A model generated the notes under the pieces. It made no database searches. It was not told where the DNA came from and saw nothing but the letters and a program-made list of their open reading frames with translations. Positions 5,964 to 44,101 of a stretch of 64,000 nucleotides of DNA are shown here, in pieces; the stretch's first letter is position 1, and every line of letters begins with the position of its first letter. This DNA is from a virus. Position numbers and translations under genes: made by a program. The stretch lies in the IMG/VR virus record IMGVR_UViG_3300045988_069682, positions 4,222 to 68,221 of that record. One strand, 5' to 3'.

Positions 5964-6079
5964 TCGTATCCTCCTAAATCTATATCTGAATCCGAGCGAG
6001 CTTGCAGCTAAGCCCAAGGAGCGGCTGACGGATAGTCGGAGCTTTCAGTTTGCCCGCTCAGACCAGAGTTATAAAAGGC

Positions 6080-17144: not shown

Positions 17145-20100
17145 TTAAATGTCAAATTTGTCGCCATATTTTTTCAAGCAAAGCTGTGCGACCTTTTGTT
17201 GCTTTGCTCGGTTTTTATCAACCAGCATCCTCTTTTGCGCTGGGGTGTATTTGGGGTTTGTTGTAATATCCCTAATCTCTTTTTGGAGCTTGGAGATTGT
17301 GTTTGCCGCAGTATTAACGCCAGATACAGCGACGGTAGGTTTACCCTTCTTGCCGTAACCAGCCTGCCATTTCGCAGATGCCTCTTTGAGCTGATAGAAG
17401 TCATTCATGGTTCTGGTAAGGTTCATGTCGTTGACAACGAAGTCACGGACGAACGCCATTTCTGAAAGCTTCTTTTCTGGCAGATTGCGCTTTTCGGCAA
17501 TCAGCAAGTCTGGAGCTTGCCATAAGAACATGCCCATAGTGCCTGTATAACCACGCCAGAGATTGTCAATTTTTACAGGAGACAACTTCATGATTGGGTT
17601 GTCACCCAAAGCCTTACTCATTTCACTGGTGTATGGGCCATATTGCAATTCGTCCGGCAGACGTTCCTGTGACTTGCTCACAATGGGCTTGCCACGGAAA
17701 AAGGAGTAATTTGTAATCCACTCAGCCAGTGGCAGAAACAGAGTAGGAATAACGCCCGGCATCAGTGCGTCTCGTGCTTGGGTGCGCCAGTTTGCCATAG
17801 CCTTCGGGTCTTGACCGTTAGCCGTATCGAGCATAGCTTCCGCGCCAGAGCCAAACAGAATACCAGCTTCTTGCGGTTTGGGGATGCGAATACCATTTGG
17901 CAATATCCAGTTGGTCATCTTGACGTTCGGGTCAAGTTCCTTATACCAATCCTCATCGTGATTCCACAGCCACAGCACTATGGACGGCAGAACTATATAG
18001 GTACCGATGCGGAGTAAAGTTCTTCTCGGGTCAGCCTTAAACATTCTATACAGCTTATCGCCGCCTTGAATACATGCGTTGAAGAACGGTACCATACGGT
18101 TGATTTGCTGACCTGTAGCACCGCTGCGGCCAAAGTTAAGAGTAATCTCTACTGCGTCGTAAGCTGCTTGGTCTACGCTCTTGCCTTTCTCTCTCGCCCG
18201 CATGAACTCGCCCATACGGGTGCCAGCTTCGGCAAGGTTGCTAATCCATTCCAGACCTTCTATCGGTTTGTGGAATATACCTTTGATAATATCTAGCAAG
18301 CCAAGCTTCTGCCATTTTTTACCGCCAGCCATACTTTCAAGGCTACGCATAACTGATTCGCCATCGCCATAGAAGTTGGACGAGATAACGCCACTTGCAT
18401 TAAACTCGCTTCTCAACTGCTGATTATTGAGCAATGCGTTCATGCCGCGAATACTGTCGTAAATTGGAACGAAGCCGTTCTTGGAGGCGATTCCTGCAAA
18501 CAATGTATCGCGAATGAGGTTGCGAAGAATAAAGGACGGAGACATTGTAGAACCAGTTCTCAGCCATTGAGCTGGCTTAGTCAGTAGAGCCATTTCGATT
18601 TCCACTAACGGCTTTACCGCAGCAGTAATAGCTGGGTACATCTCAGGGATTGTCTGATAGGAGTGCTTCTCGCCGTTGAACATTACCGTAAAGATGCAGT
18701 TCTTGGCATCGCCGCTATTGCCCTTAACCTCCTTGATGTAGTCATCGAGCTTGTATTTATTTGCCTGTTTAACGGCATACTGGCCAACTCTGTTACGCTC
18801 TGCCTTCTGTGTCAATGCGTTGATAGATGTAACAATAGTTCTGAGTGGCGGCACTATGTCGCGTTCGGAACCTTCGCTGCTACGATTCTTTAACGGGTCA
18901 GACACGTTCGCTAGACCTTTGCCAGAGTTAATCTGGTCGATGAAACTGTCAACAGCAGCGGTGTCGCTGAAATCACGCATCAACGGGCAATAAGCCTTGT
19001 AACGAGATTTGGTTGCTAAGTATCTGTCCCCGGTAATCAAGCCAGTGTTGTACAGAATATCCAGCATGTTGTCAGTAATGCCTTTGAACATCTTGGCATA
19101 TTCTTTGAAACCAACAGGAGCTTCTTTGATGACCTGCCGAATTTCCTGCTCAGTCATACCGCCCGGAAATTTATAAGGCTCAAAGATAGGCTTATCACCA
19201 TGCGAGCCTTTCTTTTCCCATTCGGCTACACTGCGGTCGTAGTCAAGTCTATGGTTTTGCGCGGACTCCAACAGGCTTCTGGCAACCAAATAATTTTCGA
19301 TTGCGCTGATGTGTTCTTCGAGTTCCGCTTTGCCTTGCGGATTAGTGGATTTAACGTAATTGGTAAATCGGCCAGCCTTCATATCTGTGCCGATTTTCTC
19401 CATGAGCATCTGCAAGGAAACCATGTTCTTGATGCCATATTTGTTTGCCGCCTGTTTCAACTCATCTGCATTGCCTTCCAGCAGAGCCATTGCCATGCCA
19501 GAAGCGCTATTCGCTGCCATGTTCATGCGGCCAAGGATGGTGTTAGCTCCGTCGATTTTCTCGCCGCTCGCCTTTGCGATTGCGTCATCGAGCAGATGCA
19601 AAGCGTCATACTTGTCAACGAAGTGTTTGTAGAATTGGCTCTTGGCATCGACTATCCACTCTTTAACCTTTTGGGTTCTGGTCTTAGGTTCCTCTCTGGC
19701 AATTCTGGAGCCGAGCTTCTGCGCTGCATTTGCGGTTTTTTCACCCTCATGGCGCTTATTGACGTAGGTACGATTCGGCAGTCCGTCGTCAATCTTTTCG
19801 ACAACTTCTTTGCCATCTTTACCCAACCTTACAACAGCTCCAGCTAGAGAGAAGCTTTCAATCTCTTTAGCGTGTAGCTTTTTACGTAAAGAGCGGATTT
19901 CTGCCGCACGCAGTTTCGTGCGCTCTTTTTGCTTCTCCCCTTTGTCTTTAAGGTATTCGGCAAGTTCCTTTTGATGCTCGTTCATAATGGCGGTAATTCT
20001 ATTGTCGCCAGCGCCAGCAGCATAGGCTTCCTCTAACTTACGCTTATAAGCTTCGTTAATACCTGTAATGCCTGGGTCTTGAGAGCGAGGCTTGCTTCGA

Positions 20101-23100
20101 GCAGAATATTTACAGGGATTAGTTTGACGAGCATTGACAAGGTCTTGCTTGTGTAGTATACTTTCGTCAGAAGCCCGCTTGCGGATAAGGCCTGTTAAGG
20201 TGTCGGTTCTGGCATCCTTAGCCGCCTTAGCCCAAGCGAGGCTTTTTTTGCTGTCTAAATATAATAATTCCCCGTTATTTTCAAGAGCGTTTATAAAATA
20301 CTGGTAGCTCGGTTTAGCTCCGCCTACGCCAAACGCAGTTTGCGGCATGTTGACCACAGTACGCTTGCGCTCAACATCGACTTCCAATTTTACTGGAACA
20401 ACAACAGTAGCTCCGTACTCGTTTTTTACTCCTAGCACTAAAACTCTTTTGTTAGGAAATTCTTTCTTAACCCCTTTAACATCCTCAAAATCTTTGAGAA
20501 TCATCAAAGGTTCTGCCATAGCTTTTGGGATTTGTTTAATTACGGCTGGTGTCATTCCCGGATGCTTAGTTTTAGTTGAATGGCCAAAAAACCCAGAAGA
20601 AATTTTCAAAGGATATTGCTTCGCTCCAGTTAAAACCAAAGCCAATGGCGTTTGTCTCATGAAATCCACAGTTTCAAACTTATGTTCTTCAAACCACTTT
20701 TTCGGATTCTTCGACCACTCATCTACCATTGCAGCAAATCTATCTGAATCCTCGTCAATCTTTTTCTGTAACGCCTCATCAAGTTTTGATTTTTTTGCTT
20801 GGTGCTTATCGCCGTCGCTGTTTCTTTTGCTGCCCTCATCTCCCCAAACCTCACCAAGCTCGATTCTACGCGCTAAATCATGGAAGTTATCAACTTTCTC
20901 GAACATCGCTTGAGCTTTCTTGATAAAATCATAAACCTTGCGCATGAGCTTCGCTACCAATCGTTGCAGCTTGTTTTTGGCAAGAATCATTCTACCCCAT
21001 GCGGTCTTTTGCAGTTCGGTTTCATGCAGTTTGGTAAACAGAGCGGCCTTTCCGCCAACGCGATTGGCTCTCAGCATCATTCTGCCCCAAGGTGTTTTTT
21101 GCAGCTTCTCAATTTCGGATTTGGTGAAGTCGGTTATGTAACCATGCTCACGAGCAGACACGAAGTTGCGCACTGCGTCAGCAGCGATTTCCTCTGCGTC
21201 TTTCTCAATACCATACTCTTCGGCAATCTTCTCTGCTCTGTCAAACAGGATTTTCTTCTCCTGCTCGTTGAGTGCCAAATCAATCGCTGCATGAGTAGCT
21301 TCGTGAGCCTCAGTATTCTCTCTGGAGTCCAAGGAAACACTGATGATACCTTCAACGTCAGAACTGTACATCGGGCGGTAGTAACCCTCGATAGTCATAT
21401 CCGCATCGTCAGCTATGCCATGTTCTTTTCTGGCGCGCTCGGCTTCTGCTTCATTTACAAGAAGATTGTTTTGAATATCGAGGGTAAATTTGTTACCACC
21501 TTTAGTAATGATAGTGAACGTGCTATTGTCATTGACTTGAATATCATCAGTACCGAAGAGTTTTTTGCACTTCTCTAAGATTTCATCACGAGAGCGCAGG
21601 ATTTTTTCGCCAAATTCGGATTCACGGACGGAGAACTTAACCTCCGCTTTTTGATTAGCCTTGTGCAAAGCTGTGTCCAATGCCTTTTGACGTACAGCTC
21701 CGATTTTGCTGTCGCTGTCATAAAACTCGATATGAAGCCCCGCATCCATCATAGCTTTTACTTCTTTAGTATCCGCATATTTCTGTGGTACAACTGCGGC
21801 TTTAAAGTCTCCAAGGTTGACGCTTCGTTGACTCTTGGCTTCAAAATATTCGGTTTTGACCAGTTTCTTTACGCTATGGAAAAGATTCAAAGCTCGCTCA
21901 TTAGGCAAAGCGTTAACAAGATTAGGGTTTTCTTTGAACGCCTCTTTGCCAACAAGTTCCTCCATTAAGTGTTTTTCGGACGGGTCATCTGAATTTATGA
22001 CTTTTGCAATAGCAATCAAAGCATCATCCCCAACTTTGTCATAATTACTTCTTATGGTTGGGTTGTCGAAGTCTCTTGAAAGACTACCAGACGCTTTGTG
22101 CATATCATCTACAGACTTAAACTCTCTGGCTACAAACGCCAAAAATTGTCCATAGGTCATTCTTTTTCCTTCAGACCAGTGTGCTCTCGGATATGCTTGT
22201 TTTAACATGTAGCGTTCTAGATTTTCTGTTGTAAAAGGAACATCCTTTCCTTCGGCCGGGTTAAAGAAATAGCTTTCGCCGTCGATTATTTTCTCTTTTG
22301 GAATCGTTGGAGTCCAAGCATCGCGCTCATAAACCTTCGCCGCTCCTGTGCTTGGGTCGATAAGTTCTTTACCCCCAATCAAAGTTATTTCTCCGTAGTT
22401 GCTGTACGGCTCTCCGTCGCGTATAATCGCAAGACTTGGCGACACAAAAGTACCATTTGTTTTGCCAAAGATAACATCGCTAAGAGATTCCATGGTCAAA
22501 TTGTGCAAAGCTACAAGTTTTGACGAATCTCTTGTCTTGTTAACATACCGCTTATTTGAATTATCAGTACCTTCTGGCTTTGAATCATAATCTGCATGTG
22601 ATGCCTTATTTTCAACAGCCACGGCATTGCTAGTTTCTTTCGCTGCTTTTGCGATTTCTTCGACCGCTTCATGCTTGTCATAAAGCTCTTGATACTTTTG
22701 TAAAGCTTGAAGCATTGCATCTGCATATTTTTTTACAGCATCAATGGTTTCGTCGCTCAATTCGTCATCTTTCAGACCTTTTATAAGCGCATCAAAATCT
22801 TCATCGAGTTTGCCGTCAGTCGCGTAATCAGCCGTTACGGCTGCCGCAATACTGTCTCTTCCAATATCGGCAACATCTTCTTTTTCTTGCTCGCTCAGCA
22901 CTGAATCTAAAATATTTAATGCTTCTTTAGGCAGCGTTTCCAGTTCGTCCGGATTACCCTCTATTAAACCACTTGCCGCCCTAGCAACAATATTGGCATC
23001 AGTATTGCCATTTTTTACTTCTGCCAATGCGACGCGCGCATCGTGTTTTGCACGTTTTTCGTCAAATTCCAACCATATAGAATTTCTTGCAGCAGCCAAA

Positions 23101-26100
23101 GAAGTGTTTTGCTCACTTGTATATTCATCATCACTCTTTGAAGCATTTGCAAGATTCATTTGGAAGTCACGCGCTTCCGCAGCCCCAACGTGACTGTCGC
23201 CGCCCAACATGGTGTCAATCTGATTGCGCAAATCATCTAATTCTTTTATGCGCTCGGCAAATGGTTTGCTAACTTCGTCCTTGCCGCTGAATACAACCTC
23301 GTTAATGATTCGCTTAACATCAGCAGGAATCTCAAAATCAAAAGTATAAGCGTTGGCCCACTTCTTAGATTTTTCGGATTCCCTGCCTAATGCTTTTTGT
23401 ATTTTCAGCATAAATTTTTCAATATAAGATTGAATTTCTGCCTTTAAATCTGCAAACAGTTTATTGAGCCACGGAATAGGGGTATCTGCATCGGCTATAT
23501 GTTTTATGATAGCCTGAGAGAAACGCTCTTCGTCAACAGGCCCGCCGTCGCTTTTAGAGCGTTGCTCTGAGTTAAAGTAAGGAGCCTGGGTATACTCTTT
23601 AGACGTTTTATCTGCCCCATTTCCTATCCATTCTCTCAGCCGTTTAAAATCATCTTTGAGTTTTTGAGGTGCAAGCGGAGACTCTGCAACCAAAGCAAAG
23701 TCTGCAAAGAACATGTGCGCCATTTCGTGGAACAATGTGGTTGTACTAGCTTTTCCAGAAAAAGCCAATCTTCCTCTTGCAGTTTTGTCAGCAGTAAATA
23801 TTTGAGTTGTGAGTCCAGCAGTGCCCGCCGAAAAGCGATTATCAATTTTATCATCAAAAAATGCAAATTTATAACGCTGAGCAAACGCCAAAGGGGTATA
23901 GTTTGCGCCGAGATACTTATTGAACAGCCTAGACCACGTTTGCGCTCTAAAAGCCAAAAGCTGTGCGGCAGCTTCAATAGCATTTGTGCTGAACCGTTTC
24001 TTGGAATCATTGGAAAGAGAAGATTTTACCCAATCATAGACCTCTTGGCCTTCTTTGGACAAAGTCTCGTTGCCGTCAGCCATTGCGTCAGTAGTTGCAG
24101 ATTCAAGAATCTTTTTGTCGATTTGCTCCTGCTCCTTTTTGACTGCTGCTACCTGTTTATCATATACGGATTTTCTATCGTCAACTCGCAAAAAGTCGCC
24201 CTTGCCAGCGCTGTCTTTGCTAGCTTCCAGTTTCCTTTCCAATTCACTCTTGATTTTTTCAAGCGAATCAAGAGCCTCTTCCAAAAATATCTTGCCTTCC
24301 TTATGCTGTTTGACAACATTTTCGGCGGCTTCCTTGGCATCTTTAAGTGCCTTTTGGTAAAACTCTTTTCTCGGAGCCTCAGCTTCTTCTCTAGCTCTTT
24401 TATCAGCTTCGAGTTGTTTCCTGTGCTGCTCTTTAGCATCTGCTTCTCGGTCGATGAACATTTGCTTGCGAGTTTCTTCTATTTTCTCGATGCAGTCTTT
24501 TGAAACAGTAGGAACCTGTCGTTCACTACGCGCATAAACACGTTTTAAAGCATTTACCTCCTTGGAAGCCTCGTCTATGCTAGTTTCACCATTACGCCAC
24601 TTATCGCAGATTCCCTTAACTTGTTCCAGCAAGGTCGCCTCGTTGTATTTTTGAATAAGTTCAATGTTATCAACGGGGGTTTTCTTGTTCATTAGATACA
24701 AGCCATTGTTATCTGTGTTCAGTCCTTTAACGATAGCAGAAACATCTGGCTTTGTTTCAATGTCTGCTTGCTGCCTAATTGGCGGTTCGCCTTCGCCGCT
24801 GCCAGAACCAACATCAGCAGTTGATGTATCGGTTGTACCTTCGGTGTTATCAGTATTCGCGTTTTTGAGCTTGTCGAGCACATCCGTAAGAGTAACCTTT
24901 GGAACTGTCGGCAACTCAACGGGCTTGCTTGTGTCAATGCCATTGCTCGCAAAGAAATTTTTAACGCTCGCAGATGCCGCATCTAATCCCGGTGTCCCTT
25001 TATTGCCATTGATATTATCTTTTTGGTGCTTTTCAAGAAAATCTTTAACCTTCGATTGTCCGTAAGGAGCGTAATAAAAGCCACCAGAATCCCAGTGGAA
25101 TCCAGCTTGGCCTAAAGATTTTCTCACATCAAGAGGAAGCTTGTCGGATGGAGCAATCCATACCATGTTGTCTTTTTGGCGCAGGATAGGGTTTAACTCC
25201 TTGCCACCGACTTGAATTGTTGGCAATTTGTCTGCCTTACCAACTTCATTCTTGTTAGTGTTGTCGTCCTGCTTTGGTTTTTTACCTTTCGCCGGGGTTA
25301 CTGTATTACCATTGGCATTGTTATCAGAAGCATCTTGAACAAGATACTTCTTCAAAAATTCGTCTAAAGCTGGCGTATTTTCAGCAATAGAGCCTTCCTC
25401 TTTGCTCTTCCATGCAAAGCCAGCTTTCTTATATGCTTGCTTTTCTTCTTTGGTGAATTTAACACGCTTTTCCATTTTTAAAGAAACTCTGCCATCCGGC
25501 AAAGACCTTACTTCGCCTTTAACACCATTTAAGCGAATAGTGCATAGCAGTTTTCCAACATCAGTAGTCGATGTATCGGTTTTATCATCGGCATTAACAT
25601 CATCTGCGTTTTTGAGCTTATCGAGTACATCCGTGAGATTAACCTTAGGAGCCTTCGGTAGTTCAACGGCCTTGCTTGTGTCAATGCCATTGCTCGCGAA
25701 AATCTCACGAAGCGTCTGGACTTCGGTTTTCGGTTCTACGTCTATTTTTGCCCCAGAGAGTTTCTCCAAAGCGGTTTTCACCTCTGCGTTATAAGGAGCT
25801 TTAATCGCTTTCGCATTGCCGTCATACTTAAAACCAGCTTCGTAGATGATTTTTCGTTGTTCGTCTGTGGTTTCGGTACCTTTAGGCCAAGAAATGGTAA
25901 CTGTTTTGCCATCGTCCGTCAGAATCGGAGTCAACTCTTTTTTGCCGAATTTAATTTTTGGGAGAGTTTTTTGCATCTCTTGTTCGCGTTCCTCCGGCTC
26001 AGCTTTAGGCTCAGTCTTAGGCTCGGCTTTAGGCTCGGCTTTAGGCTCAGCTTTAGGCTCAGTCTTAGGTTCAGCTTTAGGTTCGGCCTTAGGCTCAGCT

Positions 26101-28655
26101 TTAGGTTCAGCTTTAGGTTCAGCCTTAGGTTCAGCCTTAGGTTCAGCGATTCTATTAAGCGCAGCAGGAACCTTTACCCCTAGCTGTTCCGCAAGTTGCA
26201 TTAATCCGTTAATGTTAGCAGTTTCCGCAACTTTTGCAGCAGCGGCCTTTTTCTTTTTGTTAAGAACTCTGCTGTTTTTTATTGCGCTTTTCAAAACGCC
26301 GCGGAAGTTTTGTACTGCATGGTAGTCGTCATCAGCGCCAAGTTCCCATGCCGCAATGCCATTTTCAGCTGCATCCATAACAGCCGCTTTGCGTGGAGCA
26401 GTCAGTTTGCTAAACCATGCCCAAGCTTCTTCGTTTCCGTTCATTGCTGCATTGAATTTTTCAACAGCATCTTGATTGTCGTTTAAAAAGGTGCGCAACG
26501 CAGGAGCCGCTCTCAGTTGTCTAACGTCAAATCCTCCATTAGCGTTCAAAAAACGGTCGGAGCCTTTCCCCTTCTTTAAACCATCTAAGATAGCTCGTTT
26601 AGAACTTTCGTAACGAACTTTGGCCTGTGTGCCGTAGTTTGCAACGGTTTCTGCTACACCTGTGTTGGCTTCTGGAGGCACAGGGTACTGCGCTGCGTTT
26701 TTCTTGCCGTTGTTTTGTAACGAAGAAGGAGCCTTTGCACTATTTTTAATATTTTGTTGAAGCGCTCGTCCACGAGGCGGCAAATTGCTTGTATCGACAG
26801 CTAAGACTGTTCTCAGCCTTGCTACTTCTATATCGTATTGCTCTTTGCTTATTTCGCCGCGAGCGTATCTGCCAGCCAAATCGTTTACTTCTTGTTCATA
26901 TTCTGCTCTAAGTCTGCTCACATCTGCTTGCGAAGGCGTATCGTATCGCAAATTATAGCCTTTAAGTCGAGTGGCTGCTTCGTTCAGACGGGTTAATTGT
27001 TTATCTGCATCCCGACGGCTAACGCTGCCTAATTGTACTCTGTTTTCGATTTTAGCGCGTTTTTCTTCGGTCTTGCGGTCAACATCGCTATTTGCATATA
27101 CACTAGGCTTTTGCGGCATCGGCAAACCCAAAACAGGCTCTTGCTTGTTGATAGCTTTATCGACACTATCCATAGCAGCCTTATAGTTAATGCCAAAATG
27201 CTGTTCTGGCGGTCTGAAATTCATGTTGCCGCCCCGTGCCATCGCGTCAACCAAAGTGCTTGGGCTTGCGCTCATCTCGTCGAGTTTTCGCCTGGTCGCA
27301 AACATGTTTTGAATCGCATCAGAATCAATTTTTTCTTTTTGCTCAGCCCCATCCCAGCCGAATTTCATAGCAGTATTTTTAATCAATTCAGCGTCTCCGC
27401 TAGAATTAACTGCATCTATTTCGTTGCGCTGTTCGTCACTTAGGGATGGATGTTCATAAAGGCTATCGAGATATTCTTGCGCCTGTGCAACATCATCGTT
27501 CGTTGGCTGTACTTCGGGCTGAACCGATTGCTGTGTCTCAGCGGCAGCTATCTGTTCCTGCTCATTCTTGCTGTTGAGGTAGTTGGCACCAGCTCTCATC
27601 GCAGCGTTGCCGCCACCGATAGCCAAGCCGCCTACACCGCCAACGGCAGCCTGTTGCAATGCTTCGTCGCTCCACTGTAAAGGGTTTACCACGCCGAGCA
27701 AATTCTGCTTGCCTTGCGCATATTCATGGGTGGATTGTTGCATACCTTCTTCCCAAGCGTTTTGCAAACCTTCACGGGTAACGCTGCCTAGAATGGCCAT
27801 CATGCCTTCTTTGCCGATTTTTTTGCCGCCAGCTTTCTCTGCTTCCTTCAAGAATAATTTGCCCAAGCCAGCAGATTCAAAGGTGTTGCTTAAACCGAGC
27901 AGAGGCATCTGCAATGCGCCTACGATAAGAGCCTGTTTTCGTGCCTCGTCGATGTTCGCGCCACTTTCCAACGCTTCCGCACCAGCATTACCCATTTCAG
28001 AAGAAACTTCAACGGGGGTTTTCAAAATATTCAAAGCATAGAGCTTGCCCATAGGGCCATCCAACACCTTTGCAAGTTTGGGCATACCTGCTTTGGCGGC
28101 AGCTCTGCTCATGCCTCCGCTGATTTTACCTGCAAGGGCAAGGCCTCTAGCCGCGCCGCCAACACCTGCTGCACCACCAACGCCAAGAGCGCCGAGGGCT
28201 GCGCCGCCAGTTGCTGCAACGGCGGCAGTCTCTGCACCAAGGACGGCCGAAGAGCCGAGCATATTAGCAACGTCATATGCCGCACCATCGCCATTAGTCC
28301 AGTAGTCGCTGGCGAATGGAATCATATCTGCAATAGTATATTCTTTTTTGCGGGCGTTGTTCTGCATAGATTCACCCAACGCATTGGCTGTGGCACCGTC
28401 TCCAATGCCCATCAAGTTGCTCAACTGTGCTTGACCTTGCAGCACGCCCAAGGCACCGGATTTAAAGCCTCTGGTAAAACCCCAACTGTCATCTTGAAGC
28501 GCACCTTGCTGCGCTGTGGGCAGCGCGCTTTCGTCGAGGTTCATTTGTTTCATATAAGAATCGGCGTATTCATGTGCTGGCATGTTGCCTAACTTTCGCA
28601 TACGCTCGGAAAAGTTTTTGTACCCTTCACTTGGGTTTTCGTAATCAAACATCAT
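17145..28655 (-). CDS. giant (~3,836 aa) multidomain virion/ejection ('polyvalent'-type) protein
   Basis: Single open frame of 11.5 kb. ATG at 28655 sits 8 nt after the upstream stop, with an AGGAGGAAC RBS. Contains Gly/Ala-rich hydrophobic N-terminal segments, 13 x (A/T)EPK, triplicated modules, and two HExxH motifs (LFHEMAHMF, EAHEATHAAI). Confidence 0.8.
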   Translation of the reverse strand: MMFDYENPSEGYKNFSERMRKLGNMPAHEYADSYMKQMNLDESALPTAQQGALQDDSWGFTRGFKSGALGVLQGQAQLSNLMGIGDGATANALGESMQNNARKKEYTIADMIPFASDYWTNGDGAAYDVANMLGSSAVLGAETAAVAATGGAALGALGVGGAAGVGGAARGLALAGKISGGMSRAAAKAGMPKLAKVLDGPMGKLYALNILKTPVEVSSEMGNAGAEALESGANIDEARKQALIVGALQMPLLGLSNTFESAGLGKLFLKEAEKAGGKKIGKEGMMAILGSVTREGLQNAWEEGMQQSTHEYAQGKQNLLGVVNPLQWSDEALQQAAVGGVGGLAIGGGNAAMRAGANYLNSKNEQEQIAAAETQQSVQPEVQPTNDDVAQAQEYLDSLYEHPSLSDEQRNEIDAVNSSGDAELIKNTAMKFGWDGAEQKEKIDSDAIQNMFATRRKLDEMSASPSTLVDAMARGGNMNFRPPEQHFGINYKAAMDSVDKAINKQEPVLGLPMPQKPSVYANSDVDRKTEEKRAKIENRVQLGSVSRRDADKQLTRLNEAATRLKGYNLRYDTPSQADVSRLRAEYEQEVNDLAGRYARGEISKEQYDIEVARLRTVLAVDTSNLPPRGRALQQNIKNSAKAPSSLQNNGKKNAAQYPVPPEANTGVAETVANYGTQAKVRYESSKRAILDGLKKGKGSDRFLNANGGFDVRQLRAAPALRTFLNDNQDAVEKFNAAMNGNEEAWAWFSKLTAPRKAAVMDAAENGIAAWELGADDDYHAVQNFRGVLKSAIKNSRVLNKKKKAAAAKVAETANINGLMQLAEQLGVKVPAALNRIAEPKAEPKAEPKAEPKAEPKAEPKAEPKTEPKAEPKAEPKAEPKTEPKAEPEEREQEMQKTLPKIKFGKKELTPILTDDGKTVTISWPKGTETTDEQRKIIYEAGFKYDGNAKAIKAPYNAEVKTALEKLSGAKIDVEPKTEVQTLREIFASNGIDTSKAVELPKAPKVNLTDVLDKLKNADDVNADDKTDTSTTDVGKLLCTIRLNGVKGEVRSLPDGRVSLKMEKRVKFTKEEKQAYKKAGFAWKSKEEGSIAENTPALDEFLKKYLVQDASDNNANGNTVTPAKGKKPKQDDNTNKNEVGKADKLPTIQVGGKELNPILRQKDNMVWIAPSDKLPLDVRKSLGQAGFHWDSGGFYYAPYGQSKVKDFLEKHQKDNINGNKGTPGLDAASASVKNFFASNGIDTSKPVELPTVPKVTLTDVLDKLKNANTDNTEGTTDTSTADVGSGSGEGEPPIRQQADIETKPDVSAIVKGLNTDNNGLYLMNKKTPVDNIELIQKYNEATLLEQVKGICDKWRNGETSIDEASKEVNALKRVYARSERQVPTVSKDCIEKIEETRKQMFIDREADAKEQHRKQLEADKRAREEAEAPRKEFYQKALKDAKEAAENVVKQHKEGKIFLEEALDSLEKIKSELERKLEASKDSAGKGDFLRVDDRKSVYDKQVAAVKKEQEQIDKKILESATTDAMADGNETLSKEGQEVYDWVKSSLSNDSKKRFSTNAIEAAAQLLAFRAQTWSRLFNKYLGANYTPLAFAQRYKFAFFDDKIDNRFSAGTAGLTTQIFTADKTARGRLAFSGKASTTTLFHEMAHMFFADFALVAESPLAPQKLKDDFKRLREWIGNGADKTSKEYTQAPYFNSEQRSKSDGGPVDEERFSQAIIKHIADADTPIPWLNKLFADLKAEIQSYIEKFMLKIQKALGRESEKSKKWANAYTFDFEIPADVKRIINEVVFSGKDEVSKPFAERIKELDDLRNQIDTMLGGDSHVGAAEARDFQMNLANASKSDDEYTSEQNTSLAAARNSIWLEFDEKRAKHDARVALAEVKNGNTDANIVARAASGLIEGNPDELETLPKEALNILDSVLSEQEKEDVADIGRDSIAAAVTADYATDGKLDEDFDALIKGLKDDELSDETIDAVKKYADAMLQALQKYQELYDKHEAVEEIAKAAKETSNAVAVENKASHADYDSKPEGTDNSNKRYVNKTRDSSKLVALHNLTMESLSDVIFGKTNGTFVSPSLAIIRDGEPYSNYGEITLIGGKELIDPSTGAAKVYERDAWTPTIPKEKIIDGESYFFNPAEGKDVPFTTENLERYMLKQAYPRAHWSEGKRMTYGQFLAFVAREFKSVDDMHKASGSLSRDFDNPTIRSNYDKVGDDALIAIAKVINSDDPSEKHLMEELVGKEAFKENPNLVNALPNERALNLFHSVKKLVKTEYFEAKSQRSVNLGDFKAAVVPQKYADTKEVKAMMDAGLHIEFYDSDSKIGAVRQKALDTALHKANQKAEVKFSVRESEFGEKILRSRDEILEKCKKLFGTDDIQVNDNSTFTIITKGGNKFTLDIQNNLLVNEAEAERARKEHGIADDADMTIEGYYRPMYSSDVEGIISVSLDSRENTEAHEATHAAIDLALNEQEKKILFDRAEKIAEEYGIEKDAEEIAADAVRNFVSAREHGYITDFTKSEIEKLQKTPWGRMMLRANRVGGKAALFTKLHETELQKTAWGRMILAKNKLQRLVAKLMRKVYDFIKKAQAMFEKVDNFHDLARRIELGEVWGDEGSKRNSDGDKHQAKKSKLDEALQKKIDEDSDRFAAMVDEWSKNPKKWFEEHKFETVDFMRQTPLALVLTGAKQYPLKISSGFFGHSTKTKHPGMTPAVIKQIPKAMAEPLMILKDFEDVKGVKKEFPNKRVLVLGVKNEYGATVVVPVKLEVDVERKRTVVNMPQTAFGVGGAKPSYQYFINALENNGELLYLDSKKSLAWAKAAKDARTDTLTGLIRKRASDESILHKQDLVNARQTNPCKYSARSKPRSQDPGITGINEAYKRKLEEAYAAGAGDNRITAIMNEHQKELAEYLKDKGEKQKERTKLRAAEIRSLRKKLHAKEIESFSLAGAVVRLGKDGKEVVEKIDDGLPNRTYVNKRHEGEKTANAAQKLGSRIAREEPKTRTQKVKEWIVDAKSQFYKHFVDKYDALHLLDDAIAKASGEKIDGANTILGRMNMAANSASGMAMALLEGNADELKQAANKYGIKNMVSLQMLMEKIGTDMKAGRFTNYVKSTNPQGKAELEEHISAIENYLVARSLLESAQNHRLDYDRSVAEWEKKGSHGDKPIFEPYKFPGGMTEQEIRQVIKEAPVGFKEYAKMFKGITDNMLDILYNTGLITGDRYLATKSRYKAYCPLMRDFSDTAAVDSFIDQINSGKGLANVSDPLKNRSSEGSERDIVPPLRTIVTSINALTQKAERNRVGQYAVKQANKYKLDDYIKEVKGNSGDAKNCIFTVMFNGEKHSYQTIPEMYPAITAAVKPLVEIEMALLTKPAQWLRTGSTMSPSFILRNLIRDTLFAGIASKNGFVPIYDSIRGMNALLNNQQLRSEFNASGVISSNFYGDGESVMRSLESMAGGKKWQKLGLLDIIKGIFHKPIEGLEWISNLAEAGTRMGEFMRAREKGKSVDQAAYDAVEITLNFGRSGATGQQINRMVPFFNACIQGGDKLYRMFKADPRRTLLRIGTYIVLPSIVLWLWNHDEDWYKELDPNVKMTNWILPNGIRIPKPQEAGILFGSGAEAMLDTANGQDPKAMANWRTQARDALMPGVIPTLFLPLAEWITNYSFFRGKPIVSKSQERLPDELQYGPYTSEMSKALGDNPIMKLSPVKIDNLWRGYTGTMGMFLWQAPDLLIAEKRNLPEKKLSEMAFVRDFVVNDMNLTRTMNDFYQLKEASAKWQAGYGKKGKPTVAVSGVNTAANTISKLQKEIRDITTNPKYTPAQKRMLVDKNRAKQQKVAQLCLKKYGDKFDI
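25996..26151. repeat. 12-bp tandem repeat (13 units) encoding (A/T)EPK
   Basis: GG(C/T)TC(A/G)G(C/T)(C/T)TTA units counted directly. In frame within the giant ORF. Confidence 0.9.
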
Positions 28656-28662
28656 GTTCCTC

Positions 28663-30471
28663 CTAGTGCTTTTTAACCCAGTTTGCAACGTCCGTTAGCT
28701 TAAAGTTATTCCACTCATCTCCCAAGGCTTCTAGAGATGCCAATATGCCAGTATGTCCGTTGGCGTTTGGAACTTCCTCTGGCTCTGGAGTAGATGCCGA
28801 AGTATTGTTGCTCAAAACATTGTCAAATTCTTCTCTGGCACCCTCGCCATCAGAGTTTTCCATATCTCCGTATGTATCTCTAAGCCACTTATCTACGGTT
28901 CGTTGCTCATCTTCGCCGAGACCACTATCAAAGTAAATCCAGTTGCGGGCTTCATCATAAGTCAGTTCACCGTTGCCAATAGCTTTTTGGAGTTCAGCCT
29001 TAACCACACTAGCTGGAACAACATAATTATCGCCAGCCATGTAACGGTCGTAAGCCGCCAATGTATTAGTGGCGGATTGTTTCATTTCTGGACTGGCGTT
29101 CGGATTCTCTAAAACGCCTCTAGCCCACTCTACGCGCTTGTCCCATGTTGGGCCTTTGCTCGAAGAACCGCCGCCAGCAGCGCTTCTGCTTCTACCACCG
29201 CCAGAACCGCCGCCATAGCCGCCTCTGCCGCCTCTGCTACCCCCGCCACCACCGCCATAGCTATACGAAGGCGCTTTGCCAGCAATGTAACCCATGCTCT
29301 GCAAATCTTTCTGAGAGTAACGGGTGTCGCCTGTTTCGAGGAAATTCTTAGCTTCCTGTTCAGAATAGCCACGGTTTTTCATCAGCATCTTAACAGATTG
29401 GTCGTATTTATACTGCTCCAAGAAGTCGCTCTGGTTACGTTTGAATTGCCCAGATAAGCCTTCTGCCAGAATCGGGTTCAACTGACGCATCCTTGCATAT
29501 GTCAATGCAGAAGCATCAATCTGCCCACTTTGTACCTGTTGTTTGTAAAGGTCATACAAGGCGTTGAATTGCTGTGCGTTGTTTTGCTCGACCTTGTTTG
29601 CAATGTCCGGTTCAATAATCTTCATTACCTGCTCAATCTGATATGGTGTTCTGCCGTTTTTTAACATTTCCGAACGGGCAATAGCCGAAAGACTTTCTTT
29701 GCTAAGAGGAATGTTGTTCAGATTCGCATTAGCAATCTGACCTTTTGCCGCAAGAGCTGTAATGGTGCGCTTATCTTCTTCGGGATTGTCAGTGCCGCTG
29801 TATTTTTGTACAACATAGTCCTGCTTCTCTGCTTTCAAATCTCGTGGAGCCTCAACCACAGGAGCCGCAACGCCTTGCCCATTAGCGGATGCGTCTGAGG
29901 AAGGGGTTGTCTGTGGCTGAGGCTGAGAAAAATTTGCAGACGGCACCTGCTGACCGTTAACAGTTAAATTCTGCGGCTGATACTGCTGCGGAATACTGCC
30001 TGTTGCACTGATAGCCGCACTTTGTGGCTGAGCAAAATCCATAGAACTGATTGTGCCGCCTTGGGGAGCTGCTACGATGCCTTGACCGAAATTCAGCCCA
30101 TTTGCGCCAGCGCCGATATTGCCAGCGTTTTCATAGCCAGTGCCTTGCTGCTGATGGAAACTTCCTGCACTTCCCGGCATTGCTACCTGTTGACCGTCCA
30201 CAGTTACGTTGCCGCCGCCAAACGCTCCTGTCGCGTCTTGGCCTTGCCCTTCCATCAACGCTTTCATTGCGGCATTTATGGCTTCGGTACTTTCATCAAT
30301 ACCCTTCTGGGTGCCTCTGCGATTATAATTCTGCCCCCAGATTGCTCCCAGCAAGCCGCCAAGGTTATAAAAAATATCATTGCTGCTTGAGCCTGTTGAA
30401 AAACCTGTGCTCGGGTTAATCTTAACTCCGTAGTTAGGGTTCATTTTCATTCCGTATGCGCCATAACTCAT
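28663..30471 (-). CDS. Gly/Gln/Arg-rich low-complexity virion protein (602 aa)
   Basis: SYSYGGGGGGSRGGRGGYGGGSGGGRSRSAAGGGSSS RGG-like tract plus Q/N/P-rich regions. Lies between the Hint protein and the giant ORF. Confidence 0.7.
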   Translation of the reverse strand: MSYGAYGMKMNPNYGVKINPSTGFSTGSSSNDIFYNLGGLLGAIWGQNYNRRGTQKGIDESTEAINAAMKALMEGQGQDATGAFGGGNVTVDGQQVAMPGSAGSFHQQQGTGYENAGNIGAGANGLNFGQGIVAAPQGGTISSMDFAQPQSAAISATGSIPQQYQPQNLTVNGQQVPSANFSQPQPQTTPSSDASANGQGVAAPVVEAPRDLKAEKQDYVVQKYSGTDNPEEDKRTITALAAKGQIANANLNNIPLSKESLSAIARSEMLKNGRTPYQIEQVMKIIEPDIANKVEQNNAQQFNALYDLYKQQVQSGQIDASALTYARMRQLNPILAEGLSGQFKRNQSDFLEQYKYDQSVKMLMKNRGYSEQEAKNFLETGDTRYSQKDLQSMGYIAGKAPSYSYGGGGGGSRGGRGGYGGGSGGGRSRSAAGGGSSSKGPTWDKRVEWARGVLENPNASPEMKQSATNTLAAYDRYMAGDNYVVPASVVKAELQKAIGNGELTYDEARNWIYFDSGLGEDEQRTVDKWLRDTYGDMENSDGEGAREEFDNVLSNNTSASTPEPEEVPNANGHTGILASLEALGDEWNNFKLTDVANWVKKH

Positions 30472-30486
30472 TCCGTATCACGCTCC

Positions 30487-31602
30487 TTACCATTCGTTTG
30501 TTGCGCCTTTGGCGATAAAGCCGTTGGCGTAATATGCGTTAGTTCCTGTCAACTTCATGTCGTAAACTTTTCTTGTGCCATTGAAGATGACACTTTTGAC
30601 TTTGCCGACATTCTTCAAGTTATCGCCAATTCTCAGCATCGCTACATCGCGCCATGTGCCGTCAGCTTTCATTAAAGGCTGAGTCAGTGTTGTGATTACG
30701 TCGTGCATGTCGCCGCCCTCGTCTTGGCAGATAACCATATAAACTTCGCTATCCAGCGGTTCCATAATCTCGACAACTTCTTCGACCTGCTTCTTATCAC
30801 GAACATGGTCGTATGCCAAAACTTTGTCACCGGAAACGATTTCTCTGATAGCCTTAGTCCCTTTGGTTGTTTTAATGGGAGTTTCACCAACAAAGCAAGC
30901 GATAGCAGACGCACCGAGGTTGAGAGCACCGCCAAGGAAGCTACCCCAGCCGCTGCCGCCGCTTTGGCTTGATGTGCTGGTTGTGGTGCCAGTGCCCTTC
31001 ATGGCATCCAGTGCACCCAATGTACCTCCGCTGTTCAAGCCAAGGGATGCGTTCCACAGATTCAGAGCTGGCTGCTGAGCCGCCTGTTGTGCCGCAGCAG
31101 AAGTAGTAATGTTCTGACCAGCCAAAGAAGCCTGCTGGCCATACAAGCCGTTCAATGTGCCGATATTGCTCTGATACTGTTGAGCCATGGCATCGGCAGC
31201 GTTCTTGGAAATATCGTTCAGAGCTGTGTTTGTCACGCTGCTGTTAAGGATGCCTCTGGAACCAAGGCTGTTAAGAGTGCTGCCCATAGTGTTGTTTACG
31301 CCGCTTCGGATAGCGTTCTCCATGTTCTGCTGATATGCAGACGGCAAAATGCCTTGTGTCAGATTGGCTACACCTTGTTGCGCCGCAGAGGTCTGCTGAT
31401 TGGCGTTGTTTAATAACTGGTTGTAGTCAACTTGGATTGTACCCAAGCTGTCTTGCAGTAAACCTCTCGCTACGCCGTTCAGCCACAGTGCGTTAGGTGC
31501 AATAGCCTCGGAATAATCAGCGGCCGCTTTTTGCAGTCGAATTTCCTGCTCTGTTGGTTTGTAGGATTGTACAGTTGTCGAACTGCCGCCTTTTTTACCC
31601 AT
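30487..31602 (-). CDS. virion protein with C-terminal Hint (Hedgehog/intein-like) domain
   Basis: Start MGKKGGSS with an AAGAGGGTG RBS. The last 136 aa are CFVGETPIKTTKGTKAIREIVSGDKVLAYD...VYDMKLTGTNAYYANGFIAKG. Confidence 0.7.
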   Translation of the reverse strand: MGKKGGSSTTVQSYKPTEQEIRLQKAAADYSEAIAPNALWLNGVARGLLQDSLGTIQVDYNQLLNNANQQTSAAQQGVANLTQGILPSAYQQNMENAIRSGVNNTMGSTLNSLGSRGILNSSVTNTALNDISKNAADAMAQQYQSNIGTLNGLYGQQASLAGQNITTSAAAQQAAQQPALNLWNASLGLNSGGTLGALDAMKGTGTTTSTSSQSGGSGWGSFLGGALNLGASAIACFVGETPIKTTKGTKAIREIVSGDKVLAYDHVRDKKQVEEVVEIMEPLDSEVYMVICQDEGGDMHDVITTLTQPLMKADGTWRDVAMLRIGDNLKNVGKVKSVIFNGTRKVYDMKLTGTNAYYANGFIAKGATNEW

Positions 31603-32089
31603 TAAGCACACCCTCTTTCCGTAATTTCTCTTTCATTTTTTCAATTAGCGGGCTGGTTGCTTTGGTGTTGAAATAATGAGTTACCCAATAAACTGGCTCG
31701 CCTGTCTTTTCGTCGTTGTGTTTGTGTGTGATGATAACCAATCTGCCGATGCTGTCTTGGCACCAATAACGGAAGCGCCCGTCAACATCTTCCTTTTCGA
31801 TTGTCTCCCAGCCAAAGCCGCGGATGTACGGTTCGATGTGTCGGGTGCAAATGCTGGCTACACACTCAAAACCAGCCGTGCAGCTTACGAGTTCAGCATA
31901 ATCACGCCAAAATTTAGCGTCGCCGCATACTTGGTAAATAATCATCATTTTGCCTTCAAAGTCGGGCTTCATGCTCGCGAAACCTCTTTCCGGCATATAC
32001 AAAAGGCGATAGCCCGGTAATAAATCAAAGCTATCGCCTGTTTTGATTTCATAAATTTCAATCCATTCTTTAAGGCTTTTAGCCTTCAT
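31595..32089 (-). CDS. hypothetical virion-module protein
   Basis: 164-aa ORF, overlap-coupled to the downstream gene. Confidence 0.6.
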   Translation of the reverse strand: MKAKSLKEWIEIYEIKTGDSFDLLPGYRLLYMPERGFASMKPDFEGKMMIIYQVCGDAKFWRDYAELVSCTAGFECVASICTRHIEPYIRGFGWETIEKEDVDGRFRYWCQDSIGRLVIITHKHNDEKTGEPVYWVTHYFNTKATSPLIEKMKEKLRKEGVLNG

Positions 32090-32115: not shown

Positions 32116-33495
32116 TCACTCGTCAATGCCGTACAGGCAGAAATTGTTTATTCTGTGCGGCGATGTGCTGGTCACAATAACCTGCATCGCCCGCAAAGAA
32201 TTGTAAAAATGCTTCACTCTGCGTTTGGTTGTCAAACTGTAATCAAAGCCACGGTCGGCAACCTGTACGTGAATTTTGCCACTCTCATCGCCTTCTCTGC
32301 CCTCGACAAAAATATCAAAGTATCTGGTGATGATGCGGTTGGGGGTGATATACATTTTCGAGATAATTTTGCTGTGTATCGGCTCTCCGTTGTCGGTAGT
32401 ATACTCGTCATTCATGCGGCAGACACCCTTGTCGGTAGCCAGCATGATGCCGCTATCTGTCTGTGCAACGTCGTGAATATCATCGTGGAAGGTGTATTTG
32501 TACGCTGCGCCAGTATCATACTGATATATATAAAAGGTCTTTTCATCCTTGGCATTAGGGCGTATCCAGAGTTGCTTCATAGTCAACATGTTCCAGATTC
32601 TTGGCTTGTAGCACTCTTTTTGCAGCAACCTGTTTATCTTATACGCAACTTCGGTTGTATCGAAGTTGCCGTAAGTTGTTGTTGTCTGCAAGCTGCGGAT
32701 GCCTAAATCCGTCGCAAACACAATGGTATTGCCCAGCAAAGCGAACGATTCCCTGTCGTCTTGTGCGTGGGTGTTGTTCAGAATCTGCTGGCTCTGTAAG
32801 TCTGGTACGGTGCCGCTTATCTGATAACCCAAATCATTGGTCTTGAATACAATCAAGTCACCGGAGAGAGGCAGCGTAGTGATAATGTCGCCACCGTCAA
32901 GCTCGCCTATGCCATACCATTGGGCTTGGCTCGCCACGTTAGTGTCCTCCTTCCATGCCTCGTCGGAAGTGCAGTCGCCAGTGCTGCTGTAATGGAAGTT
33001 GTCATCACCGCGTTTGGAAGTACCCAATCTGCTGTCGCGCACCCATAAATTGTCGCAAAGGAAACTGCCTTCAACGGTAGTCAAGTTGTTCTCGTAATCA
33101 TAGTATTGTAGCTTATCACCGCTGCCTATGGTGACTTTGGCTCCGAACCGCTGGCAGACAGGGCGCTCTTCGCCTGTCAGTTTGCCAATCTGCTTCGGCG
33201 GTTCTTTGACATAGCCGTAATAAGCGTTGGCCGTTCCCTTTGCTGGTGCTTTGCCAAACAGCAGAAAGCCATCCGTGCTTTGGTCATACCAAATTTTATC
33301 CACTGGCTCACCAATGTCGATAAGAGGCTCGGAATAACCGCACCTTGTACGCAAAACGCCCTGCTCAAACATATAGTTTTCAAGCAGGACGGCTTCGTTT
33401 TCACCTATCATGTTGTCTGGAACAGAAGCGTTCATGCCGCCCACTAAACTGCTTAGGCAACACGATACACTCTGCGGTTCTCTTTCTATCGGCAT
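32116..33495 (-). CDS. structural protein (tail/nozzle-like, beta-rich)
   Basis: 459-aa ORF in the virion module. No specific motif recognised. Confidence 0.55.
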   Translation of the reverse strand: MPIEREPQSVSCCLSSLVGGMNASVPDNMIGENEAVLLENYMFEQGVLRTRCGYSEPLIDIGEPVDKIWYDQSTDGFLLFGKAPAKGTANAYYGYVKEPPKQIGKLTGEERPVCQRFGAKVTIGSGDKLQYYDYENNLTTVEGSFLCDNLWVRDSRLGTSKRGDDNFHYSSTGDCTSDEAWKEDTNVASQAQWYGIGELDGGDIITTLPLSGDLIVFKTNDLGYQISGTVPDLQSQQILNNTHAQDDRESFALLGNTIVFATDLGIRSLQTTTTYGNFDTTEVAYKINRLLQKECYKPRIWNMLTMKQLWIRPNAKDEKTFYIYQYDTGAAYKYTFHDDIHDVAQTDSGIMLATDKGVCRMNDEYTTDNGEPIHSKIISKMYITPNRIITRYFDIFVEGREGDESGKIHVQVADRGFDYSLTTKRRVKHFYNSLRAMQVIVTSTSPHRINNFCLYGIDE

Positions 33496-42898: not shown

Positions 42899-44101
42899 TT
42901 AGCGCTTGATACCGATGATTGCAGCGGAAGCCTTCGGAGCTGCGCATTTGAGGCCCAGCCAAGATTCCAGCATACGCTCATCATAAGAGCCTTTCTTCGG
43001 AATGGGTACGTCGTGGGTGTGTTCAAACCACTTAATACCCCAATAGCCCATATCCATGCAGTAGATGCGGCTATCCGGCAGCATACGATGTGCTTCGGCA
43101 GTCAGTACGCCGTAGTCAGTTTGGATAACGTCGGCAACAAGATTCAGCTTGTTCTTCTTCGCCATATCGCGGTAAGAAGTAGCCTGTGCGATTACCAACT
43201 GGCTGAAAGCGCGTTTCTTGGCGGGGGACATGAACGCATGGGTAGGATTACCGCCGCGGTTGTACGCCATTTCCATTACCGCGTTGAGGTCATCCAGAGT
43301 GTAGTCGACAGTGCCGCCTAAATCCAGTACGTTGTTTTTGATGATTTTAGCGGAAGTGCCAGCAGCACTCGGTTTGACCTGTTCAGCGGCAATGTTCTCA
43401 ACAGCACCTTTTTGGGTGTTGAAGATAGTGAATTTGGTTTTTGGAGTAGCAGCATCGGTGCGGATGTAATAAATGGTCTTAGCGGACAGGCCAGTCGGCA
43501 TGGTTTTGGCAGTGAAATACACAAAATCACCAGTTTCCAAGCCATGCGGTTTGGTGGTAGTGATAGAACCGTCGGTAGTGCCGACAGTTACATCCAACTC
43601 TTGAGTAGCCATGAAGAACGGAACGCCGCCAGTTTTAGCCGGAGTAGTCTTGTTCTGTTCTGCGTTGGTGGTCTCATTGTTTACGAGAGCGTACTCAATG
43701 TCAGCAGCATGTTTGCGGGAGCACTGTTCCAACAGGCGAGCCAGCTCATCCTCGGGGCGGTAAACTTTAGCAACTTTGCGCTGTGCCTCAGTTACATAGT
43801 AGCTGTTTACAAAGCGTTGGCAGTTGTTTTCCAAACCTTCCAGATGGCCGATTTCCTTGGAGGAATAATCCTCTTTTTCCAAGTGGGCGTTCTCACCGGG
43901 CGGCTGCAAACCTTCGGTTAACCAGCTAAATTTCAGAGTGGTTGCATCTTCCTCGGAGCCGAAGCGGTTGAGGAACAGAGTAACCTCGGGGTCGATGTTG
44001 GTAATTACGCTGCTCATATCCTCAGCATGGCCAATCGCATCAGAGGTATGGGATTGGGAAGTGCTGTAGGAAAGAGAACGTGTTACGTCGTTAATTGCCA
44101 T
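42899..44101 (-). CDS. major capsid protein (HK97-fold, DUF5309/SU10-like pattern)
   Basis: 400 aa, downstream of the scaffold. N-terminal ...VITNIDPEVTLFLNRFGSEEDATTLKFSWLTEGL is typical of this capsid family. Confidence 0.7.
   Translation of the reverse strand: MAINDVTRSLSYSTSQSHTSDAIGHAEDMSSVITNIDPEVTLFLNRFGSEEDATTLKFSWLTEGLQPPGENAHLEKEDYSSKEIGHLEGLENNCQRFVNSYYVTEAQRKVAKVYRPEDELARLLEQCSRKHAADIEYALVNNETTNAEQNKTTPAKTGGVPFFMATQELDVTVGTTDGSITTTKPHGLETGDFVYFTAKTMPTGLSAKTIYYIRTDAATPKTKFTIFNTQKGAVENIAAEQVKPSAAGTSAKIIKNNVLDLGGTVDYTLDDLNAVMEMAYNRGGNPTHAFMSPAKKRAFSQLVIAQATSYRDMAKKNKLNLVADVIQTDYGVLTAEAHRMLPDSRIYCMDMGYWGIKWFEHTHDVPIPKKGSYDERMLESWLGLKCAAPKASAAIIGIKR

Follow-up and report, generated by a model that had tools for sequence, protein, structure and literature searches.

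Why does a gene in the structural block of an uncultured, short-tailed phage from the gut end in a domain of the self-processing Hint (Hedgehog/intein) class, and what does that domain do there? The question is raised by the gene at 30487..31602 (minus strand) of a 64,000-nucleotide (nt) stretch of viral DNA, called the window here, which spans positions 4,222 to 68,221 of the IMG/VR virus record IMGVR_UViG_3300045988_069682. The window is nearly the whole of this complete 68-kb record, in which direct terminal repeats are present. The gene encodes 371 amino acids (aa) from the ATG at 31602 to the stop codon at 30487-30489, and the last 136 aa consist of a Hint domain plus a five-residue tail, ATNEW. 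We propose, with a probability of about 0.6, that the product is a helical virion-protein precursor with a self-removing C-terminal Hint cap, and that it is the smallest of an ejection-type trio. The open frame extends to a GTG at 31611 (30487..31611, minus strand, 374 aa). The ATG at 31602 is likely the true start of the gene, because a ribosome-binding site (AAAGAGGG) lies 8 nt upstream of it, homologs start with MGKKGG, and the gene then overlaps the upstream 164-aa gene by 8 nt. Residues are numbered from the ATG; numbering from the GTG adds 3.

The preliminary description of this DNA, made from its letters, had placed a Hint domain at the C-terminus of the protein. A search with Hint profiles, the check it had suggested, gave a significant match. 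The Pfam model PT-HINT (PF07591) scored 34.3 bits against a gathering cut-off of 27.7, with an E value of 3.4e-8 when the whole protein was searched and 3e-9 when the query was the 136-aa piece. PT-HINT is the only Pfam model above its cut-off; Hint_2, Hint, and Intein_splicing match below theirs. The sequence strings behind the assignment (..ASAIA/CFVGETPIKTTKG.., TTLTQPL, and VYDMKLTGTNAYYANGFIAKG-ATNEW) are all found in the protein, and the coordinates given for the domain with its tail, 30490-30897, run exactly from the first residue (Cys1) to the last codon because Cys1 is the TGC codon at 30895-30897. The domain proper (aa 236-366; 30505..30897, minus strand) is a mini Hint with no endonuclease insert. 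When PDB was searched with a profile of the family, the top sequence match was the bacterial intein-like (BIL) domain of C. thermocellum (2LWY; E value 5e-9). AlphaFold2 modeled the Hint with a predicted local distance difference test (pLDDT) score of 86-94 over aa 241-370 (about 90) and the part in front of it (the N-part) with a score below 50. The top Foldseek matches of the model were Tetrahymena BIL2 (E value 1.7e-10, template modeling (TM) score 0.78) and gp41-1 (TM 0.84-0.85), with further matches to DnaB mini-inteins, 2LWY (TM 0.80), and the Hedgehog Hh-C domain 1AT0 (TM 0.72). Foldseek gave 60 matches in PDB with an E value of 1e-3 or lower, and among the matches listed, 50 of 50 were Hint-fold proteins. 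The C-terminal 136 aa are a genuine Hint domain.

Which reactions this domain could carry out was approached through its relatives. More than 600 were found in a word-indexed search and more than 600 in an exhaustive HMMER search, nearly all of them unnamed metagenomic proteins; two relatives in BFVD are labelled 'Hint' and nothing more. We built hidden Markov models (HMMs) for both halves of the protein and aligned 195 complete family Hint domains, whose mean pairwise identity is about 33%. Cys1, the predicted nucleophile (aa 236, or C239 in the GTG numbering; 30895..30897, minus strand), is kept in 193 of the 195 domains, and the remaining two are gapped. It is always followed by Phe or Val (residue 2 is Phe in 193/195) and is preceded by Ala, Phe, or Trp in 149 of 193 cases. 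In Hint domains, Thr B:7, His B:10, and the residue at F:4 act on the N-terminal scissile bond (PMC4031507). Thr B:7 is present in 192 of the 195. The F:4 residue of the window protein is the Asp in KVYDMK (30559..30561, minus strand), which aligns to block F of BIL2 and 2LWY; this position holds Asp in 182/195 and Glu in 10/195, and the block-F His position is Asn in 168/195. Block B reads T-L-T-Q (30679..30690, minus strand). Its Thr B:7 is present and its His B:10 is replaced by Gln, because the HMM alignment sets T-T-L-T-Q-P on T-T-F-D-H-P of the 2LWY sequence TTFDHPF; the preliminary description had also read this block as lacking His. Across the family, B:10 is Gln in 189 domains, Glu in 6, and His in none. 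His B:10 has been called 'the most conserved intein residue', and a single exception that still functions is on record (PMC4031507); inteins with the block-B His substituted still function (PMC4031507; PMC7664689).

The other end of the domain is as distinctive. It closes with ..AKG and ATNEW (30490..30510, minus strand) where inteins have ..HN, and in the HMM alignment to 2LWY the residues G-F-I-A-K-G occupy the position of the intein ..H-N. The replacement of the terminal His-Asn by Lys-Gly with only five residues after it, which the preliminary description had pointed out, is therefore correct for the window protein, and the terminal Asn position across the family is Gly in 171/195, Ala in 17/195, and Asn in none. 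A +1 nucleophile (Cys, Ser, or Thr) is absent after the Hint, where Lys-Gly is followed by Ala. Tails after the Hint are mostly 2-16 residues long across the family, and the Hint is terminal in nearly all members. In the near clade the tail (30490-30504 in the window) conserves ..KG(A/G)T(N/D)EW with Trp last, and no other window protein among those looked at has an ..ATNEW-type ending.

The family keeps the nucleophile and two of its three helpers, and the third helper is swapped for a fixed polar residue. Everything for C-terminal cleavage or splicing has been discarded; lacking both the terminal Asn and a +1 nucleophile, the domain can perform neither reaction. Since B:10 is always Gln or Glu and the terminal His-Asn is never present, the N-S acyl shift at the Ala-Cys bond is predicted to be the only step possible. 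Judged from the residues, the pattern of those kept and lost indicates a Hint that is probably active and restricted to N-terminal cleavage rather than a decayed one. The restriction to N-terminal cleavage had been deduced earlier for the single protein; the residue inventory upholds it and extends it to the 195 family members.

Relatives without a Hint bear directly on the release of the N-part. Many relatives of 225-264 aa have no Hint, one of them complete within its contig. These orthologs finish in the same Gly-rich tail, 0-5 residues from the Cys1 site, with an uncharged segment of the GGLFGGLLGG.. type that is usually followed by one to few extra, often basic, residues. For example, a protein ending in ..SYYGAK has a Hint-bearing counterpart that reads ..SYYGA/CF, and the ending ..GNSGLFGR has the counterpart ..GNSGLF/CF. 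We considered whether the Hint-less proteins are truncated calls or products of split genes and rejected this, as their stop codons lie inside the contigs. The Hint was also absent in six frames of the loci L005-L009 and on the gene strand of the other Hint-less loci.

Among 52 related loci in IMG/VR, 40 carry the Hint and 12 do not. Most of the 52 show the same slot: a gene of about 455 aa, a gene of about 140-164 aa, the family gene, sometimes a gene of about 190 aa, a gene of 440-940 aa, and a giant open reading frame (ORF). Two of these loci, L034 (no Hint) and L037 (Hint), share about 80% DNA identity on both flanks. They remain collinear up to nt 6692 of each locus, the base directly in front of the Cys1 codon; past 465 nt that code for the Hint with its stop, homology resumes. 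A maximum-likelihood tree of the N-part was built by a quick search from 57 representatives, with multi-copy, incomplete, and divergent (P0252) proteins excluded. The Hint label undergoes 12 changes on this tree, and at least 5 of these are forced by branches with a Shimodaira-Hasegawa-like approximate likelihood-ratio test (SH-aLRT) value of 95 or higher. By this tree, the Hint appears to have been lost or gained at least five times. Because the label changes repeatedly, the N-part likely works without a covalently attached Hint. The preliminary description had suggested that the N-terminal part is released, and this gains support from the Hint-less orthologs, which end at the predicted cleavage site, and from the Hint-sized indel, which begins at the Cys1 codon.

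Where it is present, the Hint evolves under purifying selection. In a comparison with a relative of 83% identity, the ratio of nonsynonymous to synonymous differences (pN/pS) is 0.18 for the Hint, 0.05 for the N-terminal domain, and 0.45 for the Gly-rich linker. Divergence of the Hint also tracks that of the N-part (Mantel r 0.53, a value that 0 of 2000 permutations attained). Together, these results say that the working protein is probably the N-part with a free Gly-zipper C-terminus and that the Hint is kept by selection where present. Removal at the Ala-Cys bond would regenerate the form encoded directly by the Hint-less orthologs.

The sequence in front of Cys1 falls into two segments. The N-terminal domain (aa 1-205; 30988..31602, minus strand) is Q/N/A/S-rich, all-helical, and conserved. 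The Q/N/A/S/G-rich composition described earlier for the N-terminal 235 aa is found as stated, and this part is also predicted to be helical. A Thr-rich stretch, GTGTTTSTSS, and the tail GGSGWGSFLGGALNLGASAIA follow (aa 206-235; 30898..30987, minus strand) and end at the Ala-Cys junction. The tail is uncharged, hydrophobic, and Gly-zipper-like and abuts the scissile bond, and in most family members the 25 residues before Cys1 include zero or few charged residues. Searches of Pfam, PHROGs, and NCBIfam assigned the N-terminal domain to no family, whether the query was the whole protein, the N-part, or one of 16 Hint-less homologs, and PDB sequences searched with a profile of the Hint-less homologs gave chance matches only. 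The N-terminal domain occurs in 1-4 tandem copies, in proteins of 245-880 aa that lie in the same syntenic slot with or without a Hint; protein length is highly variable between related phages because of this copy number. Loci with tandem copies are L031-L033, L038-L043, and L047-L057, with the family gene at about position 6001 in each.

We infer from these observations the following course of events. The gene product would be a precursor that gives rise to a small helical virion protein. Among three proteins that exit the capsid along with the DNA, this one is most likely the smallest. Cys236 would attack the Ala235-Cys236 bond, and an N-S acyl shift, as expected from the chemistry of the Hint family, would turn this bond into a thioester. 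Thr305 (B:7), Gln308 (at the B:10 position, normally His), and Asp348 (F:4) are the predicted helpers. The thioester would then be resolved, most simply by water or a small thiol. The products would be a mature protein of about 235 aa ending in the uncharged Gly-zipper tail and a free 136-aa Hint. As a speculation on its role, the cap may mask or solubilise the putatively membrane-active tail, or time its exposure, until assembly. The Hint-less orthologs tend to end in basic residues instead of a cap. A true splicing intein was considered as an alternative and rejected, since the phage Hint has neither the Asn nor the +1 nucleophile and orthologs end at the site.

The place of the protein in the virion is suggested by its neighbors. 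The packaging and structural module lies on the minus strand and holds a large terminase (48746-50092), an SU10-type portal (45719-47953; PF23899, E value 8.5e-123), an SU10-type major capsid protein (42899-44101), and tail and fibre genes, one fibre being collagen-like. No tube, sheath, or tape-measure gene was found in this module of the window, so the phage is short-tailed. The portal search returned podophages only, at about 25% identity, and tblastn of the protein and of one Hint-less homolog against 50,697 phage records gave no matches. Past the fibres, the gene order is a 459-aa protein, a 164-aa protein, the 30487-31602 gene, a 602-aa protein, and a 3,847-aa polyvalent protein, the last two being the candidate ejection partners just downstream. 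The 602-aa protein (28663..30471, minus strand), the middle member of the trio, is Q/N/G-rich with an RGG tract, and in most related loci a 440-940-aa gene takes its place. The 3,847-aa protein (17145..28688, minus strand), the large member, carries LPD38, PBECR5, and MuF_C domains, and a giant ORF is next in most related loci. Iyer et al. 2017 (PMC5512222) make the case that a polyvalent protein whose gene lies among virion genes is likely to be packaged and injected. The 3,847-aa ORF of the window also has an HExxH zincin-like motif (TLFHEMAHMFF), and giant-ORF relatives in other loci have other domain sets (SNF2/ResIII helicase, LPD23). The upstream pair consists of the beta-rich 459-aa protein (32116-33495, minus strand) and the 164-aa protein (31595-32089, minus strand), and a pair of about 450 aa and about 140-164 aa lies upstream of the family gene in most related loci. 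Residues 228-380 of the 459-aa protein match phrog_5107 (amidase/lysis; E value 8e-10), and this protein could be a virion-associated cell-wall hydrolase.

The position and size of the gene suggest that the Hint-capped protein is a virion, internal, or ejection protein. The trio of small, medium, and giant proteins after the tail genes mirrors gp7/gp20/gp16 of P22 and gp14/gp15/gp16 of T7, and the predicted mature protein has about 235 aa, against 229 aa in P22 gp7 and 196 aa in T7 gp14. P22 gp7 has a 20-aa N-terminal leader cut by a host protease according to the annotation of its record, and relatives of the phage protein bear a leader of the type cut by the host protease Prp. No Hint domain is annotated in the records of P22 gp7 and T7 gp14.

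Several points weigh against our proposal. The N-S shift could be slow, conditional, or abolished, because His B:10 is gone family-wide. The conserved ATNEW tail hints that the Hint part may have a role of its own. What points to ejection is gene order and size only, and hhalign of the N-part found no similarity to P22 gp7 (probability 0.4%) or T7 gp14 (0.1%), both below 1%. Finally, the N-part, which matches no family, models poorly: AlphaFold2 of this part alone, with an 18-sequence alignment, gave helices only at a pLDDT of 38.

One alternative concerns how the thioester, once formed, is resolved. Instead of water, a specific nucleophile might act, its amine or hydroxyl group being supplied by a lipid, the cell wall, or a partner protein of the virion, and the Gly-zipper tail would then become covalently attached. 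The residues that would support cleavage would equally support such a transfer, and Gln or Glu at B:10 could make the thioester long-lived or triggered. In addition, a membrane-type segment flanks the site, and BIL2, from the Tetrahymena BUBL1 locus, gives the top structural match. However, only five residues follow the Hint and there is no acceptor-recognition region, unlike the sterol-recognition region of Hedgehog. Because the Hint-less orthologs in the same slot end in a plain carboxyl terminus, no adduct is needed for function, which counts against coupling. We consider such coupling unlikely, if somewhat less so than the other alternatives. A more elaborate form of the idea seems to us rather unlikely as well: the particle would keep a latent thioester, to be discharged at ejection onto a molecule of the host envelope or onto another ejection protein as partner. 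This would anchor the Gly-zipper tail covalently, with Hedgehog-style lipidation or cross-linking building a DNA conduit, and the invariant Gln or Glu replacing the block-B His could permit such a latent state.

That every member lacks the most conserved catalytic His, and that the block-G residues have gone too, can also be read as the mark of an inactive Hint. It would then be retained as a compact knob at the C-terminus that might, for instance, dock within the capsid or at the portal, and the conserved short tail ..GATNEW could be the docking motif. However, Cys1, Thr B:7, and Asp F:4 are kept at a mean identity of about 33%, which is unexpected for a purely structural domain, and the functional inteins with a substituted block-B His mentioned above (PMC4031507; PMC7664689) speak against equating this loss with inactivity. 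Repeated losses of the entire domain, clean and exactly at Cys1, further argue that the Hint is not part of the working protein, and we judge an inactive knob to be improbable. We regard it as very improbable that the Hint is selfish, the degenerate remains of a mini-intein or BIL element that landed at the gene's 3' end and persists although the phage gains nothing from it, because its patchy presence and the coincidence of indel boundaries with domain boundaries are outweighed by the lack of a homing endonuclease, purifying selection, co-divergence with the host protein, retention in about three quarters of lineages, and invariant family-specific features (TxxQ, no Asn).

The proposed self-removing Hint cap can be placed among the known Hint systems, none of which it matches in full. 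With BIL domains it has in common the mini Hint fold, Cys1, the lack of a +1 nucleophile, and cleavage-type processing, which is predicted in the phage case. BIL domains are divided into types A and B (Amitai 2003; Dassa 2004, as summarised in PMC4031507). Type A, to which 2LWY belongs, has a C-terminal His-Asn and TxxH, whereas the phage domain has Lys-Gly and TxxQ; type B, whose members cut at their flanks but do not splice, lacks the intein block-G His-Asn, as does the phage Hint. BIL domains are flanked on either side by further sequence of the bacterial protein, secreted or variable, that contains them, whereas the phage Hint is terminal on a protein of the structural block. The layout of Hedgehog and Hog proteins is the same, a cargo followed by a C-terminal Hint that acts at the N-terminal junction only, as predicted from the residues for the phage domain. 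In Hedgehog, the Cys1 thioester releases the upstream domain, which is esterified to cholesterol, whereas the phage Hint has no sterol-recognition region, has Gln in place of the block-B His, and is found in a prokaryotic virus. The PT-HINT domains of polymorphic toxins precede a C-terminal toxin, which they are thought to release. No toxin domain follows the phage Hint, and the part predicted to be released lies upstream. BIL2 (6Y75, 6TMM) acts on the domain in front of it, as proposed for the phage Hint, with which it shares 18% identity, but it follows ubiquitin-like domains, which BUBL-type Hint domains conjugate, and its terminal Asn, changed to Ala in the construct used for crystallisation, has no counterpart in the phage Hint. 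Class 1 inteins are inserted in a host protein that is re-ligated and end in Asn followed by a Cys, Ser, or Thr +1 residue; the phage Hint does neither. A parallel in concept is offered by the Peptidase_S74-type intramolecular chaperone domains of phage tailspikes and fibres, which, like the proposed cap, are C-terminal modules that serve only before or during assembly and then cut themselves off. Their fold is unrelated, and they use a Ser-Lys dyad instead of the Hint thioester.

The N-termini of the family show a second kind of variation. Many relatives begin with M..FDLQLF/GG(K)GGSS.. or ..DLQMF-KGKGGS.. (for example P0159, P0205, P0214, P0222, P0207, and P0262, and the loci L006, L009, and L026). 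This leader matches the Prp cleavage motif of ribosomal protein L27, MLxx(D/N)LQ(F/L)F'A(S/H)KK, which is also found in the capsid and scaffold proteins of phage 80alpha (PMC9405229; PMC5744158). The window protein starts with M-GKKGGSS (window 31590-31611), exactly at the predicted post-cleavage residue, and a six-frame search of the window found no Prp-type leader ((D/N)LQxF) at gene starts. Close relatives with degenerate leaders (..ILQLHKKGSS) represent intermediate forms. This suggests that some lineages may have swapped N-terminal trimming by a host protease for a shorter gene.

Copies in isolate genomes come from Megasphaera massiliensis, M. intestinihominis CLA-AA-H81, and Selenomonas sp. 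AE3005, and one copy in a metagenome-assembled genome (MAG) bears the label Phascolarctobacterium. Every one of these taxa belongs to the Negativicutes. In the cultured Negativicutes isolates L061 (M. massiliensis NP3, on a 1.38-Mb scaffold), L062, and L063, the Hint-capped gene is present as prophage copies with 42-48% identity. The MAG labels Prevotella, Collinsella, Legionellaceae, and Ruminococcus are probably binning artefacts of phage contigs. Negativicutes are diderm Firmicutes, and a diderm envelope fits a three-protein trans-envelope conduit.

In a distant branch (P0222, P0225, P0207, and P0262), the Hint, with T-x-x-Q/E in block B, is followed by a charged, Lys-rich tail of 15-55 aa. 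The tail of P0222 weakly matches HeH/Rho_N-type nucleic-acid-binding motifs (E values 1e-3 and 2e-3, below the cut-offs). The freed Hint fragment of this branch may have a job of its own. An unrelated metagenomic protein that the exhaustive search also returned, P0259 (662 aa), has three tandem canonical BIL-type Hint domains with a Cys-Phe start and the block-B His. They end in ..AHNKPHIC or ..VHNGKGGGGC, in contrast to the His-free and Asn-free phage domain.

No publication describing a phage virion or ejection protein with a Hint cap, or Hint-based maturation of phage particle proteins, came up in literature searches. Hint autoprocessing is known from inteins, Hedgehog proteins, BIL domains, and polymorphic toxins; as far as these searches show, its setting in a phage protein, here with a His-free block B, is new. 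The Hint marks a large unannotated family of gut podophages, whose members carry at most the name 'Hint' in databases. The capped and uncapped orthologs, which differ by an indel starting exactly at Cys1, constitute a natural experiment, and the family as a whole is a natural test of Hint function with Gln or Glu in place of the block-B His. If the cleavage is true, it would be a new route of virion-protein processing beside prohead proteases, host proteases (Prp, OpdA), and S74 chaperone domains, and a small His-free Hint that cleaves only at its N-terminus could serve as a self-cleaving tag. It would also open a way to study how hydrophobic ejection proteins with membrane activity are prevented from doing harm ahead of assembly.

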